Source: Squalus acanthias (Eukaryota). Taken from it: a stretch of 64,000 nucleotides of DNA. The DNA is taken from contig CM059431.1 in NCBI GenBank assembly GCA_030390025.1, positions 105,278,001-105,342,000 on the forward strand, in the 5' to 3' direction. Shown here piece by piece: positions 3,903-46,997 of the stretch. The position numbers and the translations under genes were made by a program. Every line of letters starts with the position of its first letter. The first letter of the stretch is position 1. A model generated the notes under the pieces. That model was not told where the DNA came from and ran no database searches. It was given only the letters and a program-made list of their open reading frames with translations.

Positions 3903-6550
3903 TGTAGAATCAATTTGTTGGAGATAAGAAATAGTAAGGGAAAGAAGGCAATGGTGGGAGTAGTCTATAGGCCCCCTAACAGTAGCTACACTATAGGACA
4001 GAGTATAAATCAAGAAATAATAGGGGCTTGTAAGAAAGGTACTGCAATAATCATGGGCGATTTTAATATTCATATAGATTGGACAAATCAAATTGGCAAA
4101 AGCAGCCTTGAGGATGAGTTCATAGAGTGTATTCGGGACAGTTTCTTGGAATAATACATTGTGGAACCAACCAGAGAACAGGCTATTTTAGGTCTGGTAA
4201 TGTGTAATGAAACAGGATTAATTAATGATCACATAGTTAAAGTACCTCTAGGGAAGAGTGATCATAACATGATAGAATTTCACATTCAGTTTGAAGGTGA
4301 GAAACTTGGGTCTGAAACTAGAGTATTAAATTTAAACAAGGCAATTACAAAGGTATGAGGACAGAGTTGGCTAAAGTTGACTGGGAAAATAGATTAGAAG
4401 GTAAGATGGTAGAAAAGCAGTGGCAGGCATTTAAAGAAATATTTCATGACTCTCAACAAAGATATATTTCAGTGAGAAAGAAAGACTCAAAAAGAAGGAT
4501 GAACCACCCATGGCTAACCAAGGAAGATAAGGATGGTATCAAATTGAAAGAAAAGGCATACAATGTTGCAAAGATTAGTGGTAGGCCAGAAGATTGGGAA
4601 AATTTTAGAAACCAGCAAAGGATGACTAAAAAAATAATAAAGAGGGAGAAAATAGCTTATGAGAGTAAACTAGTAAGAAATATAAAAACTGAGAGTAAGA
4701 GCTTCTACAAGTATATAAAAAGGAAGAGAGTAGCTTAAGTAAACGTTGGTCCCTTGGAGGACAAGACTGGGGAAATAATAATGGGAAATAAGGAAATGGC
4801 AGAGGCATTGAACAAATATTTTGTATCTGTCTTCACAGTAGAGGACACTAAAAATATCGCAGTAGTAGTAGAAAATCAAGGGGCAAAAGGGAGGGAGGAA
4901 CTTAAAACAATCACTATCACGAGAAAAAATGTGCTAGGCAAACGTATGGGTCTAAAGGCTGACAAATCCCCTGGACCTGATGGCCTGCATTCTAGGGTCT
5001 TAAAAGAAGTGGCTACAGAGATATTGGATGCATTGGTTATATTCTTCCAAAATTCCCTTGAATCTGGAAAAGTCCCAACGGATTGGAAAACCGCAAATGT
5101 AACGCCCTTATTCAAAAAAGGAGGGTGACAGAAAACAGGAAACTATAGACCAGTTAGCCTAACATCTGTCATTTGCAAAATGCTCAAATCCATTATTAAG
5201 GAAGTAGTAGCAGGGCATTCAGAAAATCATAATAAAATCAAACAGAGTCAACATGGTTTTATGAAAGGGAAATCGTGTTTGACCAATCTATTAGCGTTCT
5301 TTGAGGAGGTAACGGGCAGGGTGGATAAAGGGGAACCAGCAGATGTAGTGTATTTGGATTTCCAAAAGGCATTTGACAAGGTGCCATGTAAAAAGTTACT
5401 GCATAAGATAAGAGCTCATGGTGTTGGGGGTAATATATTAGATTGGATAGAGAATTGGCTAACTAACAGAAAACAGACAGTCGGGATAAATGGGTCATTT
5501 TCAGGATGGCAATCTGTAAGTAGTGGGGTGCCACAGGGATCAGTGCTGGGGCCTCAACTATTTTCAATCTATATTAATGACTTGGATGAAGGAAGCGAGT
5601 ATATTGTAGCCAAATTTGCAGACGATACAAAGAAAGGTGGGAAAGCACGTTGTGAGGAGTACACAAGAGTCTGTAAAGGGATATAGATAGGTTAAGTGAG
5701 TGGGCAAGAATTTGGCATATGGAGTATAATGTGGGAAAATGTGAAGTTATCCACTTTGGTATGAAGAATAGAAAATAAACATATTATTTAACTGGAGAAA
5801 GACTACAGAATGCTACGGTACAGAGGGATTTGGGTGTCCTCGTACATGAAACAAAAAAAGGTAACATGCAGGTGCAGCAAGTAATTAGAAGGCAAATGGA
5901 ATGTTGGCATTTATTTCAAGGGGGATAGAGTATAAAAGTAGTGAATTCTTGCTACAACTGTACAGGGCGCTGGTGAGACCACACCTAGAGTACTGCATAC
6001 TGTTTTGGTCCCCTTATTTAAGGAGGGATATACTTGCATTGGAGGAAGTTCAGAGAAGGTTCACTAGGTTGATTACTAGGATAGAAGGCTTGTCTTGTGA
6101 GGAAAGGTTGAGCAGGTTGGGCCTATACTCATTGGAGTTTAGAAGAATGAGAGGTGATATAATTGAAATATATAAGATTCTGAGGGGGTTGGACAGGGTA
6201 GATGCTGAGAGGATGTTTCCCCTCGTGGGGGACTCTAGAACGAGAGGGCACAGTCTCAGGATAAGGGGTCGCCCATTTAAGACAGAGATGAGGAGGAATT
6301 TCTTCTCTCAGAGGGTCATGAATCTTTGGAATTCTCTTCCCCAGAGAGATGTGGAGGTGGAGTCATTGAATATATTCAAGGCGGAGATAGACAGATTTTT
6401 GAGCAACAGGGGAGTCAAGGGTTATGGGGAGCAGGCAGGAAAGTGGAGTTGAGGCCATGATCAGATCAGCCATGATCTTATTGAATGGCGGAGCAGGCTC
6501 GAGGGGCCGAATGGCCTGCTCCTGCTCCTATTTCTTATGTTCTTATGTTC
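3903..6550 (+). mobile_element. CR1 (HER1-like) LINE: partial endonuclease + RT, decayed
   Basis: [58 protein letters not shown]; 3' tail (TTCTTATG)n. Confidence 0.95.
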
Positions 6551-25190: not shown

Positions 25191-25987
25191 GGGCTGGATT
25201 TTGTGAATGGAGACAAGTTGGTGGCAGGACTGCTGCTTGTCGTGTCAATGTCCCGTCTCCATCCTCGCCTGACCAACCAGAGGGATTTTCCCCTGATTGA
25301 GCTTGTTAAGCCCGCCCTGCGGGCTCAGCAGGCCAATTAGGGAGGAAGTCACTGACAGAGCACGTCAATGTCAGACGTGCTATCTGTCAAGCCTTCTTGA
25401 AAGAAGAAATGTCAGCATTTGACAGCTCTGTGAAGCTGTCAAACACTGACATTCTCTGTAGTTTGATGAGTCCTTGTGTTCAGGACTCATCAAACCTTTC
25501 AACTTTGTTGATTTCATATGGCTGTTGGGTCTCCCGATCCAGCGCGGCTGAAGGCAGTAGGAAGAAAATAAGGTAAGTGAACATTTTTATAAACTTATCA
25601 CTCACCTTACATACTTACCACTCCACACTTGCACCCATCGCTCACCTCTACATCTTACTTCCAGGTGCCTCCGACCCCCGCAGACCTCCTTCACGTCTCC
25701 TCCAATCCGACGGGGTTTTCCGAGGTCGGGAAGCCTTCACCTGAGAAGGTAAAATGGCACTAATCCTTTTTTCTGCCTGTTAACTACCTGTTAACAGGCA
25801 GTTAAAAGGATTAAATGCCTTTCCCGCCTCCAGGAGACGGGACTCGAAGCAGCACATCTTCCCACCTCCTGGCAAAAGAGCATGGAGGCGGGATAGGGGA
25901 AGGTTTGCCATCCACCCCCACTTTCTGCTAATTTAACGGCAGTCCCGCCTCTATGCCCGCCTCCTCGGGGCTTGGAAAATCCAGCCC
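25191..25987. mobile_element. Harbinger-type MITE (family B)
   Basis: Perfect 12-bp TIR GGGCTGGATTTT/AAAATCCAGCCC; TTT TSD; interrupts the CR1 RT; shares TTCCC..GATTG.GCTTGTTAAGCCCGCCC with 45362-45391. Confidence 0.92.
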
Positions 25988-28069
25988 TTTGTATACTCCT
26001 CACACTTGCTAACTCACCTATCTTTGTATCATCAGCAAATTTGGCTACTGTACACTCGGTCCCTTCATCCAAGTCACTAATATAGATTGTAAATAGTTGA
26101 GGCCCCAGCGCTGATCCCTGTGGCACCCCACTAGTTACTGGTTGCCAACCGGAAAATGACCCATTTATTCCAACTCTCTGTTTTCTGTTAGTTAGCCAAT
26201 CCCCTATCCATGCCAAAATATTACCCACAACCCTGTGCACTCTTATCTTGTGCAGTAACCTTTTATGTGGTACCTTGTCGAATGCCTTCTGGAAATCCAA
26301 ATACACCACATCCACTGGTTCCCCTTTATCCACCCTATTTGTTACATCCCCAAAGAACTCTAGCAAATTTGTCAAACACGATTTCCGTTTCATAAAACCA
26401 TGTTGACTCTGCTTGATTGTCTTATAATTTTCTAAATGTCCTGCTATTACCTCCTTAATAATGTATTCCATCATTTTTCCAATGACAGATGTTAGGCTAA
26501 CTGGCCTATAGTTTCCTGCTTTCTGTCTCCCTACTTTCTTGAATAGTGGCGTTACATTTGCGGTTTTCCAATCCGCTGGGACCTCTCCAGAATCCAGGGA
26601 ATTTTGGTAGATTACAACCAACGCATCCACTATCTCTGCAGCCACTTCTTTTAAAACCCAAGGATGCAGGCCATCAGGTCCAGGGGACTTGTTGGCCTTT
26701 AGCCCCATTAGTTTGCCTAGTACTTTTTCTCTAGTGATAGAGATTGTTTTAAGTTCCTCCCTCCCTTTCGCCCCTTGATTATCTATTATTATTGGGATGT
26801 TTTTAGTGTCTTCTACCGTGAAGACCGATCCAAAATAATTGTTGAGAGTCTCTGCCATTTCTCTATTTCCCATTATTAATTCCTCAGTCTCATCCTCTAA
26901 GGGACCAACGTTTACTTTAGCTACTCTCTTCCTTATTATATACCTGTAGAAGCTCTTACTGTCTGTTTTTATATTATTTGCTAGTTTACTCTCATACTGT
27001 ATCTTCTCCCTCTTTATAATTTTTTTAGTCATCCTTTGCTGGTTTCTAAAAATTTCCCAATCCTCTGGCCTTCCACTTAATAAGGGGAGGAAAGGCTGCA
27101 GTACCGTGGCGCGACGTGCCACAGTGCGTGGTGCTGCGGCACATAGCGCCGCGATATTCACTTGCAGCGCCCCAAGAGGGAGGTGGGGCGCTTCCAGTAG
27201 CGCCCCGCCTCCCTCTTGGGGTGCTACTGGTGAATTACAGGCGTGGGGTTCTAACTTTCTCGGGGCGCTAACCCGGTGAAGCTAGCGCCCCAAAGGGGGC
27301 ACGACCCAATTTTTCCCCCCTTTACTCTTATACTCAAATCCTCATTAGTTCGGGGCCAGTTATTACCTTTACTCTTGTGAGTTCTCTCAACTGCTGCTTA
27401 AAAAAAGATGCAGAGGTGATAAAGAATTTTTATTTCACATGCATCATTCTTGGCTGGTTTTCAGTTGTTCTTACTAATATAAATAATGTATGTACACAAC
27501 AGTACTGTTATATATAAATGGGGGCAACAGCACTGAAATGTAAATCTAGCTTAAATTCTTAACCCTTTGTGAACGGGAGAATTTTAAACGATTGGGGCAA
27601 AAAAAATCCCAATAATACACACGTTTTTTATACACGTACTTACTACTTCGCTATAAATACTGATTAGCGGAAATCCTAACCCCTATATCTTGTACTCTTA
27701 ACACATGCATTTTTCCTGAGCCCTTGGACCTTCACTCTCTTAAATGGATAAATATAGGGCTCTAGAGAGAAAACCTGTAATTACGATTATTTTCAATAAT
27801 GAATTGCCAAGAAACTAAAACAAACGAATGAGCTGCCACTGATCTAGATGCTAAGTGTTTGCGGTTCCTGTTAATTATCTCTGCACTATCACTCCTCTTT
27901 AACCTGAGTTAGTCTCCAAAGTGAAATGCTCTTCAACGCAACTGCTTTGATGCACAGAACGTACGGGTGTGTTGTTGCCAAACTATTCAGGGCGACACAG
28001 CAGCTTCCTCATGAAGCAATAAAGTACTCAACTGACTTCAACATTTCACGATCTCAACACATTACAAAA

Positions 28070-34490: not shown

Positions 34491-34903
34491 AGGGTATGGT
34501 AGCATAGTGGTTATGTTACTGGACTAGTTAATCACTGAACTAGTAGCGGCCTGGACTAATGATCTGGTGATGTGAGTTCAAATCCCACCATGGGGAATTT
34601 AAATTCAGTTAATTAAATAAAACTGGTATCAGTAATGGTGACCATAAAACTACCGGATTGTTGGAAAAACCCATCTGGTTCGCTAATGTCCTTTAGTGGA
34701 AGGAAATCTGCCGTCCTTACCCGGTCTGGCCTATATGTGAATCCAGACCCACAGCAATATGGTTGACTCTTAACTGTCCTCTGAAATGGCCCAGCAAGCC
34801 ACTCAGTTATATCCAACTCACCGCCGCCTTCTCAATAAATGCTGGCCTTGTTGCTGGTGAATGAATAAAAAAAATCCACGTCCCATGAATGAATAAAAAA
34901 AAA
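34491..34903 (+). mobile_element. tRNA-derived SINE made of the LINE-B 5' head/body plus the LINE-B 3' tail
   Basis: A box TAGCATAGTGG, B box GTTCAAATC; body matches reverse complement of 40503-40840; ends CTCACCGCCGCCTTCTCAATAAATGCTGGCC...CCCATGAATGAATAAAAAAA. Confidence 0.85.
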
Positions 34904-37621: not shown

Positions 37622-40600
37622 TTTAAAAAAAATTTGTTTATGGGATGTGGGCATCGCTGGCGAGGCCAGCATTTATTGCCCATCCCTAATTGCCCTTGAG
37701 AAGGTGGTGGTGAGCCGCCGCCTTCTTGAACCGCTGCAGTCCGTGTGGTGAAGGTACTCCCACAGTGCTGTTAGGGAGGGAGTTCCAGGATTTTGACCCA
37801 GCGACGATGAAGGATCGGCGATATACTTCTAAGTCAGGTTGGTGTGTGACTTGGAGGGGAACTTGGAGGTGGTGGTGTTCCCATGCGCCTGCTGCCCTTG
37901 TCCTTCTAGGTGGAAGAGGTCGCGGGTTTGGGAAGTGCTGCTGAAGAAGCCTTGGCGAGTTGCTGCAGTGCATCTTGTAGATGGTACACACTGCAGCCAC
38001 ATTACGCCGGTGGTGGAGGGAGTGAATGTTTAAGGTGGTGGATGGGGTGCCAATCAAGCGGGCTGCTTTGTCCTGGATGGTGTCGAGCTTCTTGAGTGCT
38101 GTTGGAGCTGCACTCATCCAGGCAAGTGGAGAGTATTCCATCACACTCCTTAATTGTGCCTTGTGGAAAGGCTTTGGGGAGTGAGGAGGTGAGACACTCG
38201 CCACAGAATACCTAGCCTCTGACCTGCTCTTGTTGCAACAGTATTTATGTGGCAGGTCCAGTTAAGTTTCTGGTCAATGGTGACCCCCAGAATGTTGATG
38301 GTGGGGGATTCGGCAATGGTAATGTCGTTGAATGTCAAAGGGCGGTGGTTAGACTCTCGCTTGTTAGAGATAGTCATTGCCTGGCACTTGTGTGGCACAA
38401 ATGTTACCTGCCACTTATCAGCCCAAGCCTGAACATCGTCCAGGTCTTGTTGCATGCGGGCATGGACTACTTCATTTTCTGAGGAGTTGTGAATGGCGCT
38501 GAACACTGCGCAGTCATCAGCGAACATCCCCATTTCTGACCTTATGTTGGAGGGATGATGTCATTGATGAAGCAGCTGAAGATGGTTGGGCCGAGGTCAC
38601 TGCCCGGAGGAACTCCTGCAGCAATGTCCTGGGGCTGTGATGATTGACCTCCAACCACCACAACCATCTTCCTTTGTGCTAGGTATGACTTCCGCTAGTG
38701 GAGCATTTTCCCCCCGATTTCCATTGACTTCAGCTTTACTAGGGCTCCTTGATGCCACACTCGGTCAAATGCTGCCTTGATGTCAAGGGCAGTCACTGTC
38801 ACCTCACCTCTGGAATTCAGCTCCTTTGTCCATGTTTGGACCAAGGCTGTAATGAGGTCGGGAGCCGAGTGGTCTTGGCGGAACCCTAACTGGGCATCAG
38901 TGAGCAGGTTTTTGGTGAGTAAGTGCCGCTTGATAGCACTGTCGATGACACCTTCCATCACTTTGCTGATGATTGAAAGTAGACTGATGGGACGGTAATT
39001 GGCCAGGTTGGATTTGTCCTGCTTTTTGTGGGCAGGACATTGTCAGATAGATGCCAGTGTTGTAGCTGTGGAACAGTTTGGCTAGAGGAGCGGCTAGTTC
39101 TGGAGCACAAGTCATCAGCACGATAGCCGGGATGTTGTCGGGGCCCATAGCCTTTGCTGTATCCAATGCGCTCAACCATTTCTTGATATCACGTGGAGTG
39201 AATCGAATTGACTGAAGACTGGCTTCTGTGATGGTGGGGACCACAGGAGTAGGCCGATATGGATCATCCACTCGGCATTTCTGGCTGAAGATGGTTGCAA
39301 ACGCTTCAGCCTTGTCATTTGCACTCGCGTGTTGGGCTCCACCATCATTGAGGATGGAGATATTCATGGAGTCTCCTCCTCCCGTTAGTTGTTTAATGGT
39401 CTATCACCATTCATGACTGGATGTGGCAGGACTGCAGAGTTTTGATCTGATCCGTTCATTGTGGGATCACTTAGCCCTGTCAATAGCATGCTGCTTCCAC
39501 TTTTTAGCATGCATGTAGTCAGTCCTGTGTTGCAGCTTCCCCAGGTTGGCACCTCATTTTTTGGTATGCCTGGTGCTGCTCCTGGCATGCTCTTCTACAC
39601 TCCTTATTGAACCAGGGTTGGTCCCCTGGCTTGGTAGTAATGGTAGAGTGAGGGATATGCTGGGCCATGAGGTTACAGATTGTGGTGGAATACATTTCTG
39701 CTGCTGCTGATGGCCCACAGCGCCTCATGGATGCTCAGTTTTGAGTTGCTAGATCTGTTCTGAATCTATCCCATTTAGCACGGTGGTAGTACCACACAAC
39801 ATGATGGAGGGTGTCCTCAGTGTGAAGACGGGATTTCGTCTCCACAATGACTGTGCGGTGGTCACTGCTACCAATACTGTCATGGACAGATGCATCTGCA
39901 ACAGGTAGATTGGTGAGGACGAGGTCAAGTTGGTTTTTCCCTCGTGTTGGTTCTCTCACCACCTGTCGCAGGCCCATACTGGCAGTTATGTCCTTATGGA
40001 CTCGGCCAGCAGTGGTGATGGACATTGAAGACCCCCACCCAGAGTACATTCTGTGCCCTTGCTTCTCTCAGTGTTTCTTCCAAAATGGTGTTCAAAATGG
40101 AGGAGTACTGATTCATCAGCTGAGGGAGGGCAGTAGGTGGTATTCTTGCCCATGCTTGAGCTGAAGCCATGAGACTTCATGGGGTCCAGAGTCAATGTTG
40201 AGGACTCCCAGGGCCACTCCTTCCCGACTGTATACCACCGCCCCTGGTGGGTCTGTGCCGCCACCAGGACAGGACATACCCAGGGATGGTGATGGAGGGG
40301 TTTGGGGACATTGGCTGAAAGGTATGATTCTGTGAGTATGACTATGTCAGGCTGTTGCTTGACTAGTCTGTGGGACAACTCTCCCAATTTTGGCACAATT
40401 CCCCAGATGTTGGTGAGGAGGACGTTGCAGGGTGTGCCGTTGCCAGCGTTGATGCTGGGTGCACCGTCTGGCCAGTTTCATTCTTATCATGTTTTGTAGT
40501 GGTTAGTTATAACTGAGTGGCTTGCTAATCCATTTCAGAGGGCAGTTAAGAGTCAACCACATTGCTGTGGGTCCGGAGTCACATATAGGCCAGACCAGGT

Positions 40601-40840
40601 AAGGATGGATAGATTTCCTTCCCTGAAGGACATTCGTGAACCAGACAGGTTTTTTACAACAATCCGATAGTTTCATGGTTACCATTACTAATACTAGCTT
40701 TTTATTCCAGATTTATTTAATTAACTGAATTTAACTTTCGCAGCTGCGGTGGTGGGATTTGAACTCACGTCTCTGGGATCATTGGTCCAGGACCTCTGCG
40801 ATTATTAGCCCAGTGACATTACCGCTACGCTACCGTTCCC
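37622..40840 (-). mobile_element. Apparently full-length single-ORF LINE (CR1/L2-group-like, LINE-B) with tRNA-derived 5' head
   Basis: 5' A box TAGCGTAGCGG and B box GTTCAAATC (~40833-40757); then APE endonuclease (LTNIWG..KLGEL..PDIVILTESYL, EPTRGKNQLDLVLTN, GSSDH) and RT (GPDNIP, QLGFR, LDIKAAFDRVWH, MFADD, ILGVTID, WNSLP); frameshifted. Confidence 0.88.
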
Positions 40841-44065: not shown

Positions 44066-45362
44066 ATAGAATCATAGAATCATAGAAGATAGGAGCAGGA
44101 GTAGGCCATTCGGCCCCTCTAGCCTGCTCCGCCATTCAATGCGATCATGGCTGATCATCCAAATTCAGTACCCTGTCCCTGCTTTCTCCCAATATACCTT
44201 GATCCCTTTAACCTTAAGAAATATATCCAACTCATTCTTGAATCTCATCATATTACAGCCCTCTCATCCCAGGAAGCAATCTAGTGAACCTTCGTTGCAC
44301 TGCCTCCAAGGCAAGTATATCTTTCCTTAGATAAAGAGACCAAAACTGTGCACAGTACTCCAGGTGTGGTCTCACCAAGGCCCTGTACAATTGTAGCAAA
44401 ACTTCCTGACTCTTATACTCCAACCCCCTTGCAATAAAGGCCAACATGTCGTTTGCCTTCCTTATTGCTTGCTGTACCTGCATGCTAGCTTTTTGTCTTT
44501 CTTGCACGAGGACACCTAAATCTCTCTGAACACCAACATTTGAAAGTTTCTCACCATTTAAAAAATATTCTGTTTTTCTATTCTTCCTACCAAAGTGAAT
44601 AACCTCACATTTCCCTACATTATACTCCATCTGCCACCTTACTGCCCACTCACTTAGTCTATCTATATCCCTTTGCAACCTTTTTGTGTTCTCTTCACAG
44701 CTTACTGTCCCACCTAGCTTTGTATCGTCAGCAAACTTGGATACATTACACTTGGTCCCTTCATCAAGGTCATTGATATAGATTATAAATAGCTGAGCCC
44801 CAACACTGATCCTTGCGGCACCCCACTAGTTACAGCCTGCCAGCATGAAAAAGATCCGTTTATCCCTACTCTCTGTTTTCTGTCCATTAACCAATCCTCT
44901 ATCCATGCGATCGATTGCTCCGAAAGCTTGTGATTTCAAATAAAACTGTTGGACTATAACCTGGTGTTGTGCGACCTCTCAATTTTGTCCACCCCAGTCC
45001 AACACCGGCATCTCCGCATCATGACTATATTACCCCCAGCCCCATGAGCCCTAATCTTGTGTAATAACCTTTTAGGTGGCACCTTATCGAATGCCTTTTG
45101 GAAATCCAAATATACTATCTCCACTGGTTCCCCTTTATCTACCCTGCTAGTTACATCCTCAAAAAACTCTAATAAATTTGTCAAACACGATTTCCCTTTC
45201 ATAAAACCATGTTGACTCTGCCTAATCATGTTATGATTTTCTAAGTGACTTGATACCACTTCCTTAACAAAGGATTCCAGCATTTTCCCAATGACTGATG
45301 TCAGGCTAACTGGCCTGTAGTTCCCTGTTTTTTCTCTCCCTCCTTTCTTGAATAGTGGTGTT
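44066..45362 (-). mobile_element. CR1 LINE fragment with internal deletion and a ~110-bp insertion (44910-45022)
   Basis: [40 protein letters not shown]; (CATAGAAT)n tail. Confidence 0.9.
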
Positions 45363-46997
45363 TCCCTTGATTGGGCTTGTTAAGCCCGCCCAGTGCATTT
45401 GCCGGCCAATTGAAGGAAGCGGGTCTGATGACGTTATGTAATGATGCGTCATCAGCCGGTTTCTTTAAAGGGACCGTGCGCAAATTGATTTTGCCAGTTG
45501 TACTTTCAGTGTTCTACAGCATTGAGGTGCTGCAAACACTGACAAGCACTGCACAGAGGTGCACGGCTGCACTCAACCTCACGCATGACTCCCTCCATAT
45601 GCTTATGGAGGGAGTCACAACAAGTAGGGAGGTCCTCCTCCCTTCCAATGGGTGGAAGAGACCTCCCCAGGAGACAAACGCAGCCTGGTCGCACATTGCA
45701 CAGGAGGACACAAGTAGGGATGTTGTCAGGAGGACCTGGGTGCAGTGGCTCAAACCTTTCAATGATCTCAGTATATCACGAAATGTTACTGCAAAGCCAC
45801 ACTCAACCTCACCCTGCTGTGCCATCCATCACATCCCCATCACTCTGCCTTCCCTACCCTACTCCTGCACATCCTTACTCACACCAACTTACCTTGTACC
45901 TCCACCCATCCCTCTCTATCTACATTATCACATCCCCATCTCACTAGCCACCCCTCACACTCACTCTCATCCTAGTGCAATCATACCAACTAACAACACA
46001 CAAGGGTAGGCACTTGAGTGTTTTATCCAATGTTCATGTAAAGTTTCTGTTAATGTGGTGTCAAACATTGAAACCTTTATTTGCAACACTTTGCGTTCTT
46101 GGACAGATTTGTGTGCACCTTTGGAAAGGCTTAGTGAGTTGAAGTCAATGGTGAGACATAATGGTACTCCCCGCAATGGTAATGAGTGTGAAAGGAATGG
46201 CTTGGGCATGGGCAGTAGACGCAAGGGAAAACCACCACCTCCAAGTTCCCCTCCAAGTCACACACCATTCTGACTTGGAAGTATATCGCTGTTCCTTCAT
46301 CATCGCTGGGTCAAAATCCTGGAACTCCCTCCCTAACAGCACTGTGGGAGCACCTTCACCGCACGGACTGCAGTGGTTCAACAAGACGGCTCACTACCAT
46401 ATTCTCCAGGGCAACTAGGAATGGGCAATAAATGCTGGCCTTGCCAGCGACAGCCACATCCCATGAACGAATGAAAAAAAAAAGAAAATTGTAGGGATGC
46501 TTTAGGGTGTTGGTGTGGGGTGGTGCCAACCTGGCGCATCATGTGGCAGCCAGGGTGTACAGCGTCAAGTGAAGTAAATTAAGCCATGGTGAGGCCATCC
46601 CTGGCCTCCCGGGCAGCAATGTGGTCGGGTGCTGATGCCCTGTGTCCTGTGCAGCATCAGTTGATTGTGGAGAAGTAATGAGATGATTCCATATTCAGAC
46701 AACTCCCGACCTGCTTATCTGACGTGATCCCCGAGCAGCGTGGACCCCGTGGGTGACCTCATAAAATGTAAAGGTGAGCTCAAAATACTTCTTAATGGGC
46801 TGTTAACAAGGTCATAATGACCTGAATTGCCTCCCCCGCCGCTGTGTGTCAGGTCTGTTCAACTCTGACAGACCCGACATCTGGGAAAGTCACGTGGTGG
46901 CGGGTTGACAGCGGGGTCTCGACCCGCTGTCAAAAATTTTTTTTCCCACCCAACCCACCACCGAACGCACCCGATGATCCCCTGAAAAATTCCCCCC
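45363..46997 (+). mobile_element. Internally deleted Harbinger element: Myb-like remnant (+), transposase C-terminal remnant (-), right TIR; LINE-B tail inserted at ~46210-46485
   Basis: SLHMLMEGVTTSREVLLPSNGWKRPPQETNAAWSHIAQ...RTWVQW.K.FNDL; minus-strand HIAAREARDGL at ~46590-46623 matches HMAARDARDAL at ~3160-3190; ends AAAAATTCCCCCC. Confidence 0.8.

Follow-up and report, generated by a model that had tools for sequence, protein, structure and literature searches.

A SINE-headed LINE family without ORF1 in Squalus acanthias and its possible transcription by RNA polymerase III

Non-LTR (long terminal repeat) retrotransposons are conventionally divided into long interspersed nuclear elements (LINEs), which encode proteins and are transcribed by RNA polymerase II (Pol II), and short interspersed nuclear elements (SINEs), which are non-coding and transcribed by RNA polymerase III (Pol III). 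In a 64,000-nt stretch of the Squalus acanthias genome (assembly GCA_030390025.1, contig CM059431.1, positions 105,278,001 to 105,342,000 of the forward strand; hereafter the window, whose own numbering is used throughout), an element on the reverse strand had initially been annotated as a LINE headed by a tRNA-like sequence, lacking ORF1 (the first open reading frame, ORF, of many LINEs) and possibly transcribed by Pol III. This element, at 40840-37633, is a decayed copy of a heritable family of autonomous, SINE-headed, ORF1-less non-LTR retrotransposons of 3.2 kb. Its parts are arranged in the order of a tRNA-derived head, a SINE body of ~250 nt, a linker, a single frame encoding an APE endonuclease and a reverse transcriptase (RT), a 3' untranslated region (UTR) of 53 nt with a hairpin, and an A-run (Table 1). 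The SINE head of this family and its poverty in T runs fit transcription by Pol III rather than Pol II, without proving it.

The initial annotation placed the A and B boxes of a Pol III promoter at the 5' end of the element, and both motifs, matched against the conventional box consensus, were found there. At element positions 9-19, the A-box-like motif is placed as it would be in a tRNA gene. The Rfam tRNA model aligns with 40833-40751 at 20.5 bits (E 0.94), under its gathering score of 29; the alignment is interrupted by an insert of 27 nt around the anticodon and covers model positions 7-64 only, which leaves out the acceptor stem. ARAGORN reports no tRNA in the head region of the window. 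Given the subthreshold Rfam score and this negative result, we regard the sequence as a tRNA-derived SINE head and not as a tRNA gene. A cloverleaf fold of the head was sought and not found, and its stability is no better than that of shuffled sequences (z +0.43, and z +0.25 in a sister copy).

Downstream of the leader, the initial annotation read an APE endonuclease followed by an RT. The RT part of this claim was confirmed in the window copy itself, where RVT_1 (Pfam) is present in two ORF fragments; the endonuclease is undetectable by Pfam in this broken copy and was recovered instead in a sister copy (L046), in which an open stretch of 542 codons matches both Exo_endo_phos and Exo_endo_phos_2 above the Pfam cut-offs. 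A 778-codon open stretch in another sister copy (L035) matches RVT_1 at 5.2e-39. By the coding criterion, that is, an APE-type endonuclease and an RT in one frame, the family members are LINEs, and at 3.2 kb with such an ORF they are not the short and non-coding elements that SINEs are. With no open stretch longer than 191 codons, the window copy is dead. A homologue search returned proteins of 930-990 aa with APE and RVT_1, in entries without informative names. One public shark gene model named aldo-keto reductase (P0039) contains a stretch 75% identical to the LINE protein over a third of the query, probably a piece of the LINE annotated into a gene. Because the leader measures only ~360 nt, of which ~345 nt are SINE head and body, an ORF1 does not fit in the element, as had been claimed, and neither an ORF1 nor an alternative 5' UTR was found in the full-length copies.

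Table 1. Coordinates in the window of the parts of the element, its SINE partner and the control LINE copies.
Feature	Position	Strand	Remarks
tRNA-derived SINE-type head	40745..40840	-	exact 5' end of the element; start shared with sister copies
A-box-like motif	40832-40822	-	sequence
B-box-like motif	40766-40754	-	sequence
SINE body	40511..40744	-	common to the ORF-less SINE partner; ends at ...CACTCAGTT, where SINE copies jump to the tail
Short upstream ORF	40347..40481	-	opened by ATG at 40481; overlaps the big ORF in another frame
APE+RT frame remnant	37686..40477	-	broken by frameshifts and stops; RVT_1 found twice
Endonuclease N-terminal motif	begins near 40423	-	sequence
Stop codon of APE+RT frame	37688-37686	-	sequence
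3' UTR stem-loop	37642..37686	-	common to the SINE tail; fold compared with shuffles
Last conserved letters of family tail	37633..37641	-	precede the T/A-run
T8 run	37625..37632	-	only the first T is element; the rest is flank
ORF-less SINE partner	34492..34903	+	same head and body, joined directly to the terminal ~95 nt of the LINE and an A-run
Control: related CR1-like LINE copy	3903..6550	+	normal T-run content
Control: related LINE RT fragment	25791..27281	-	496 open codons, RVT_1 1.9e-24; normal or excess T-runs

That head and ORF are inherited as one unit is indicated by the recurrence of their junction at independent loci, among unrelated flanks, which the initial annotation had named as a check on its reading. 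A 466-nt query comprising the head, the leader and the start of the ORF was searched in the 3.7-Gb genome, which gave 7920 first-look candidates; 39 non-self matches were scored, and 32 of them reach the last base of the query at 83-89% identity. In all 29 loci that were fetched, homology runs from the head, past the junction, and into the ORF, starting within 5 nt of +1 in 27 loci, and 6 nt and 27 nt inside the head in the other two. When 20 loci were extended to 4 kb, 17 reached the 3' tail, 14 of them essentially collinear and 3 with internal gaps. The linker and the ORF start have the same sequence in all aligned copies, with a deletion of ~45 nt at this place in the window copy. Among the 20 best matches to head plus body, 14 run into the ORF, one is of the SINE type, and five are deleted or diverging.

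The head was also found in a sample that was blind to it, for which 20 copies were picked by similarity in the endonuclease region alone and a 131-nt piece was fetched at the expected position of the head. It is visible by eye in 15 of the 20 (BLAST detects 9), complete with its start in 12 and truncated by ~9-30 nt in three. Two head variants occur among these endonuclease-picked copies (L105, L114, L117, L121 and L123 versus L107, L108, L110, L111 and L116), one of which is similar to the head found in the SINE at 34492; the head has therefore persisted while the family diversified. The head start of L117 carries a tandem partial duplication.

The 5' ends of the copies are precise. In 16 of 21 copies the first bases GGGAA[C/T] directly follow mutually unrelated flanks, and two more are one substitution off; in the other three, the first 2-9 nt differ or are cut. 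Extra 5' sequence derived from the flank was found in none of the 21. These ends bear on two alternatives to Pol III initiation. The first is a LINE that once acquired its 5' end from a SINE and is still transcribed by Pol II, from an internal promoter that happens to start at the same base, into an RNA that is polyadenylated: recombination between the LINE and its own SINE, or a template switch between the two, which share leader sequence, would have given a LINE master the SINE head, which would now be a passenger or a TFIIIC-bound module promoting Pol II transcription, and the poverty in T runs would be a by-product of codon or dinucleotide usage. In 16-18 of the 21 copies, however, the first base is precisely tRNA +1 and also the base at which the SINE begins, and a promoter starting upstream would leave flank extensions while one starting downstream would lose the head, neither of which is seen. 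The second is that Pol II transcribes the element together with host genes, and that RNase P defines its first base by cutting 5' of the tRNA-like head. Exact 5' ends at tRNA +1 would follow naturally, and ribozyme-defined 5' ends are described for six LINE clades in the sections of Kojima (2018, PMC5786205) considered here, but a head with neither a cloverleaf nor an acceptor stem, and no more stable than its shuffles, makes a poor substrate for such processing, and the poverty in T runs would be left unexplained; we consider this account very unlikely.

The same window contains an ORF-less SINE that shares both ends with the LINE. This SINE is 78% identical to element positions 1-339, begins with the same GGG, and has the tail and hairpin of the LINE at its 3' end; its tail region contains a partial internal duplication. 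The last codons of the big ORF lie within the sequence common to the SINE tail. The same ORF-less form occurs in L092, and also in contigs of four public runs with four organism codes, where 40511/40530 is joined to 37699/37719. Contig depth in these runs is highest on the body and grows in the 3' direction; as the RNA label of the runs is a guess, this is uninformative on transcription, strand or 5' ends. Among sequencing runs recorded as RNA, none was found to contain the sequence. At L009:1244-1495 and 2330-2440 there is an older SINE, built in the same way (71% identical to the LINE leader) and split by an internally deleted LINE derivative. A search of open PMC papers and bioRxiv for a 20-letter string of the SINE body returned no papers that would name it as a V or Deu domain.

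Since both ends are common to the SINE and the LINE, insertion of a LINE into a SINE would produce much the same picture, and so we considered that it is not one element at all but a chance SINE beside a truncated LINE, a site-specific insertion of LINEs into SINEs, or a set of chimeras produced copy by copy through template switching. A 128-nt tail query found 29 other loci, all of which are 3' parts of the LINE that begin at different element positions and share one 3' end, a pattern of 5' truncation that is usual for LINEs. None of the 29 has the head or body upstream, as site-specific insertion requires, and we conclude that the LINE does not land inside SINE copies; insertion targeted to SINEs was rejected on this count. 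A chance neighborhood of SINE and LINE was rejected on another, namely that 29 of 29 fetched loci cross the same junction. Further, the junction and linker are the same in all aligned copies, and the big ORF runs into the sequence common to the SINE tail. In deletion derivatives, the amount of ORF retained beyond the SINE body varies, reaching element position 515 in L009, 448 in L026 and 393 in L082, as would be expected of internal deletions; further deletion derivatives are L085 and L092. With this evidence, the explanations in which head and ORF are not one element are hardly credible.

A second feature of the family is its scarcity of T runs on the sense strand. Counts given for the window copy in the initial annotation were correct: two internal runs of four T (T4; 40097-40094 and 40085-40082) and a T8 at 37632-37625, with many more A runs (14 of at least four letters, A4+, by our count). 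Among 18 aligned full-length copies, there is no T4+ in 11, one in six, and two in the window copy, and no T5+ in any; no T4+ site is common to at least four of the 18. The same copies have, on average, ~14 A4+, ~10 C4+ and ~9 G4+ runs each. T runs of at least two, three and four letters number 89, 9.7 and 0.44 per copy, versus ~106, 21.5 and 4.4 expected, by a hand calculation from base composition (close to the results of mononucleotide shuffles, 19.9-22.7 for T3+ and 4.0-4.7 for T4+), so that the shortfall against base composition grows with run length. Compared with mononucleotide shuffles, the absence of T4+ has P values of 0.000-0.018 in four copies with none, and the value is 0.077 in a fifth copy with one.

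Codon content alone does not account for this scarcity at the level of T3+. In five open ORF stretches of the family, 5, 4, 3, 3 and 2 T3+ runs were observed, versus 9.8, 8.4, 7.6, 5.7 and 3.8 expected from synonymous-codon shuffles, i.e., about half of the expectation (P 0.022, 0.004, 0.002, 0.037 and 0.23, respectively). Phenylalanine is encoded in the family ORF stretches by 42 TTC and 12 TTT codons; in two control LINEs of the window the ratio is 25 TTT to 16 TTC. The CR1 identity of the control copies is the label of the initial annotation, of which RVT_1 alone was confirmed. Many sense-strand T4 runs had been reported in the copy at 3903-6550, and nine T4+ runs were indeed counted there. 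The controls at 3903-6550 and 25791-27281 have, respectively, 37 and 19 T3+ runs (30 and 13 expected) and 9 and 9 T4+ runs (7.5 and 2.9 expected), and no depletion was found in them by the synonymous shuffle test (P 0.50-0.95). The family is therefore poor in T runs, and specifically so, with the statistical weight in TT and TTT; the absence of T4 is by itself no more than suggestive. For a Pol II LINE with an inherited head, the deficit of T3+ to about half of the synonymous shuffles, with two related LINEs neutral, is left unexplained.

The leader has an unusual organization for a capped mRNA. The ~357-nt leader (window 40840-40482, reverse strand) contains eight conserved upstream ATGs, and near the start of the endonuclease there is just one conserved ATG, at element position ~358, which opens an ORF of only ~50-56 codons. 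The endonuclease frame, which is open from approximately position 330 and contains no ATG, lies at -1 relative to the ATG of the short ORF in 25 of 36 copies; in 9 of the 36 the two are in frame, through different indels. The spacing from this ATG to the endonuclease anchor is most often 92 nt (11 copies); spacings of 86, 80 and 74 nt also occur, all multiples of six apart, and at ~40470-40430 on the reverse strand of the window, as well as in sister copies, a 6-nt periodic repeat reads arginine-rich in the endonuclease frame. This arrangement suggests that the endonuclease-RT frame uses frameshifting, a near-cognate start or some other unconventional initiation. A leader with eight upstream ATGs and no in-frame ATG would be a poor design for cap-dependent scanning, and in this respect fits a conventional Pol II transcript badly.

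At the other end of the element, the 3' UTR hairpin has a predicted stability of -25.4 kcal/mol (z -3.37, with 0 of 200 shuffles as stable; z -1.96 for the tail hairpin of L035) and is presumed to be the recognition site of the RT. After the conserved tail, a short A-run of 4-11 letters is preceded by one T in eight copies, two in two, and three in four. The remaining four of the 18 are the window copy with its T8, L033 with TATTT before the A-run, L049 with no T before the flank, and L050, whose tail was unrecovered. The T8 that the initial annotation had read at the extreme 3' end is present, but homology to the sister copies ends at 37632-37630, and the run sits where they have an A-run or flank; it is therefore not a family feature, nor is it a terminator built into the element. 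Neither the LINE family nor its SINE carries its own terminator; both end in an A-run, so that the missing terminator does not separate the LINE from the SINE. The order of T and A in the tail was also considered as a sign of Pol III termination followed by polyadenylation, and this was rejected, the single T being more simply part of a short 3' repeat unit. In L039 an A8 tail is followed by T7, and at 37631-37622 of the window T7 and then AAA stand in place of the A-run; both arrangements may reflect insertion into T/A-run targets.

Based on these features, we propose the following tentative mechanism for the family. The A and B boxes of the head would recruit Pol III, which would start at the first base of the element, as on the sister SINE, a type conventionally transcribed by Pol III. 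The polymerase would read through the 3.2 kb, since the sense strand offers no T4 stop signal, and end in the downstream flank; the RT of the element would then bind the shared 3' hairpin and copy the RNA into new sites, often incompletely, leaving the many 5'-truncated copies. The protein might come from unconventional translation of the same RNA, or from copies read through by Pol II. The main argument for a full-length Pol III RNA is that the element begins exactly at tRNA +1 and at the base with which the SINE starts. Such an RNA is also favored by an A box in its canonical place, by 5' ends free of flank-derived extensions and by a head that persisted while the family diversified, as well as by the family-specific poverty in T runs and a leader unfit for scanning. 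We give the complete chain, from the Pol III start at the head through 3.2 kb of read-through to copying via the 3' hairpin, a little less than an even chance, which still makes it the likeliest of the explanations considered. That the family amounts to a SINE carrying its own RT, i.e., an autonomous retrotransposon with a Pol III-made genomic RNA, a coding strand purged of T runs and a protein made without a cap, is possible and likewise short of even. Pol III transcripts are reported to be translated, if weakly, some SINE RNAs are reportedly polyadenylated through AAUAAA, and a Pol III-dependent promoter was claimed early on for human L1.

Several observations weigh against this proposal. 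In the window copy itself, three T4+ runs are what chance would give (2.6 +/- 1.5 expected from dinucleotide-preserving shuffles). Across the five copies tested, the same kind of shuffle expects only 1.4-2.1 T4+ runs, so that P is 0.09-0.2 for the four copies with none and 0.57 for the fifth, with one. Synonymous shuffles of the five ORF stretches likewise give no significant result for T4+ (1, 0, 1, 0 and 0 observed versus 1.4, 1.5, 1.4, 0.9 and 0.5 expected), and, the tested stretches being homologous, their P values are not independent. The depletion of TT and TTT could have another cause. The T-run avoidance claimed by the initial annotation thus stands against base composition, against synonymous shuffles for T3+, and against the two LINE controls, but not for T4+ under dinucleotide-preserving shuffles. 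At the 3' end, AATAAA hexamers in the tail and a terminal A-run are as in polyadenylated Pol II RNA, and the T8 once taken for a terminator has turned out to be flanking DNA of the window copy. At the 5' end, five of the 20 copies in the head-blind sample, mutually unlike, have no recognizable head within the 131 nt, which is not evidence for a head-less form. Target-site duplications (TSDs), which had been expected to enclose head and ORF together, cannot be demonstrated because the family makes no recognizable ones: none of at least 7 nt was found in 18 copies, and the best, of 4-6 nt, are at the level of chance. To our knowledge, moreover, neither natural Pol III transcripts of 3 kb nor natural mRNAs made by Pol III are established.

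Part of this would be expected under the main rival account, a Pol II LINE that inherited its 5' end from a SINE. LINEs are as a rule Pol II transcripts, the hexamers and the variable A-run of 4-11 letters are in keeping with polyadenylation, the absence of T4+ is within the dinucleotide-shuffle expectation, and C-rich third codon positions (0.31-0.34) together with rare phenylalanine (~2%) lower the number of T runs by themselves. Set against the precise coincidence of starts, the T3+ deficit and the leader, we consider this account doubtful, though by no means negligible. Transcription by Pol III, as initially suggested, has its structural predictions borne out, while its compositional prediction holds in direction and only partly in significance.

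A diversified LINE family with the Pol III promoter of a SINE at the start of its full-length copies blurs the divide between LINEs and SINEs. If Pol III does make the RNA, the family would be a case in a vertebrate of a protein-coding unit naturally transcribed by Pol III, would have implications for the way in which LINEs without ORF1 function, and would offer a natural test of the distance that Pol III can read. Even with transcription by Pol II, the family would show that promoter modules move from SINEs to LINEs as well as in the reverse direction. The LINE/SINE pair is also a concrete case for the origin of conserved SINE bodies: if the reading is correct, a SINE body linked directly to a LINE leader would supply the missing case for the hypothesis that SINE bodies derive from the 5' parts of LINEs. 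In open PMC papers and bioRxiv we found no description of an autonomous LINE headed by a tRNA-derived sequence, or of a LINE transcribed by Pol III; the LINE family may already be catalogued without comment, e.g., in Repbase or Dfam. A LINE with a SINE 5' module is a variant on known LINE/SINE building blocks, with a substantial chance of being a Pol III-transcribed coding retroelement.

Besides these elements, the window contains remains of DNA transposons, namely a DDE_Tnp_4 transposase fragment at 2422-2943 on the forward strand (E 4.1e-25) and, at 45371-46009 on the same strand, a weak Myb_DNA-bind_5 match (20.6 bits, under the cut-off of 21.7). A weak LINE RT fragment (23.8 bits, under the cut-off) is present at 44253-44825 on the reverse strand.

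With regard to clade, the family has traits known from RTE-type elements, including no ORF1, a length of ~3.2 kb, a very short 3' UTR, and a short overlapping upstream ORF. Identity between its RT and those of the CR1-like copies in the window amounts to 31-36% (E 1e-40 and 1e-32), with a C-terminal match to one of them (E 4e-06); the ORF1 upstream of ORF2 that most members of the CR1/L2 group have is absent, the leader carrying only the short ORF. A protein atlas search returned generic RT clusters that are not clade-specific. In its general build, with 3.2 kb and one APE+RT ORF, the family resembles the ORF1-less LINEs of ~3.2-3.6 kb, such as those of the RTE clade and UnaL2 and ZfL2-2 of the L2 clade, and as in these single-ORF LINEs its 3' UTR is tiny and contains a hairpin, while a short upstream ORF overlaps the big one, the latter as in RTE-1. 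We know of no tRNA head described for RTE, UnaL2 or ZfL2-2. The U6-L1 chimeras are similar in that the sequence of a small Pol III RNA is fused 5' of a LINE. Unlike these chimeras, which have variable junctions, are dead on arrival and do not give rise to lineages, the family described here has one fixed junction and two head variants.

Among cartilaginous fishes, the sister SINE resembles the V-SINE HE1 (with HER1) and the DeuSINE SacSINE1, compared by description only, in its tRNA head, conserved body and LINE-derived tail. In the portions of the sources used here, the partner LINE of these shark SINEs is described by its tail only (Ohshima 2013, PMC3747384; Luchetti 2017, PMC5499810). For L1-driven retrotransposition, the part of Kroutter (2009, PMC2666806) used here indicates that the polymerase making the RNA dictates the need for ORF1p. 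SINEs in which a small-RNA head is combined with 5' and 3' sequence from RTE or Vingi LINEs are described in the sections drawn on from Kojima (2018, PMC5786205), where the head-less bipartite LINEs are taken as Pol II transcripts and SINEs are said to be unable to encode protein; further SINEs of such build appear in the corresponding sections of Kojima (2020, PMC7245038). As far as these sections describe them, Bov-tA with BovB, WALLSI, CoeSINE4/5 and SINE1-1_EBu are built like our sister SINE, i.e., from a tRNA head, a LINE leader and, here, the last ~95 nt of the LINE. In pairs of the Bov-tA/BovB type, however, the autonomous LINE is described without a small-RNA head, whereas in the family described here the coding LINE itself starts with the head.

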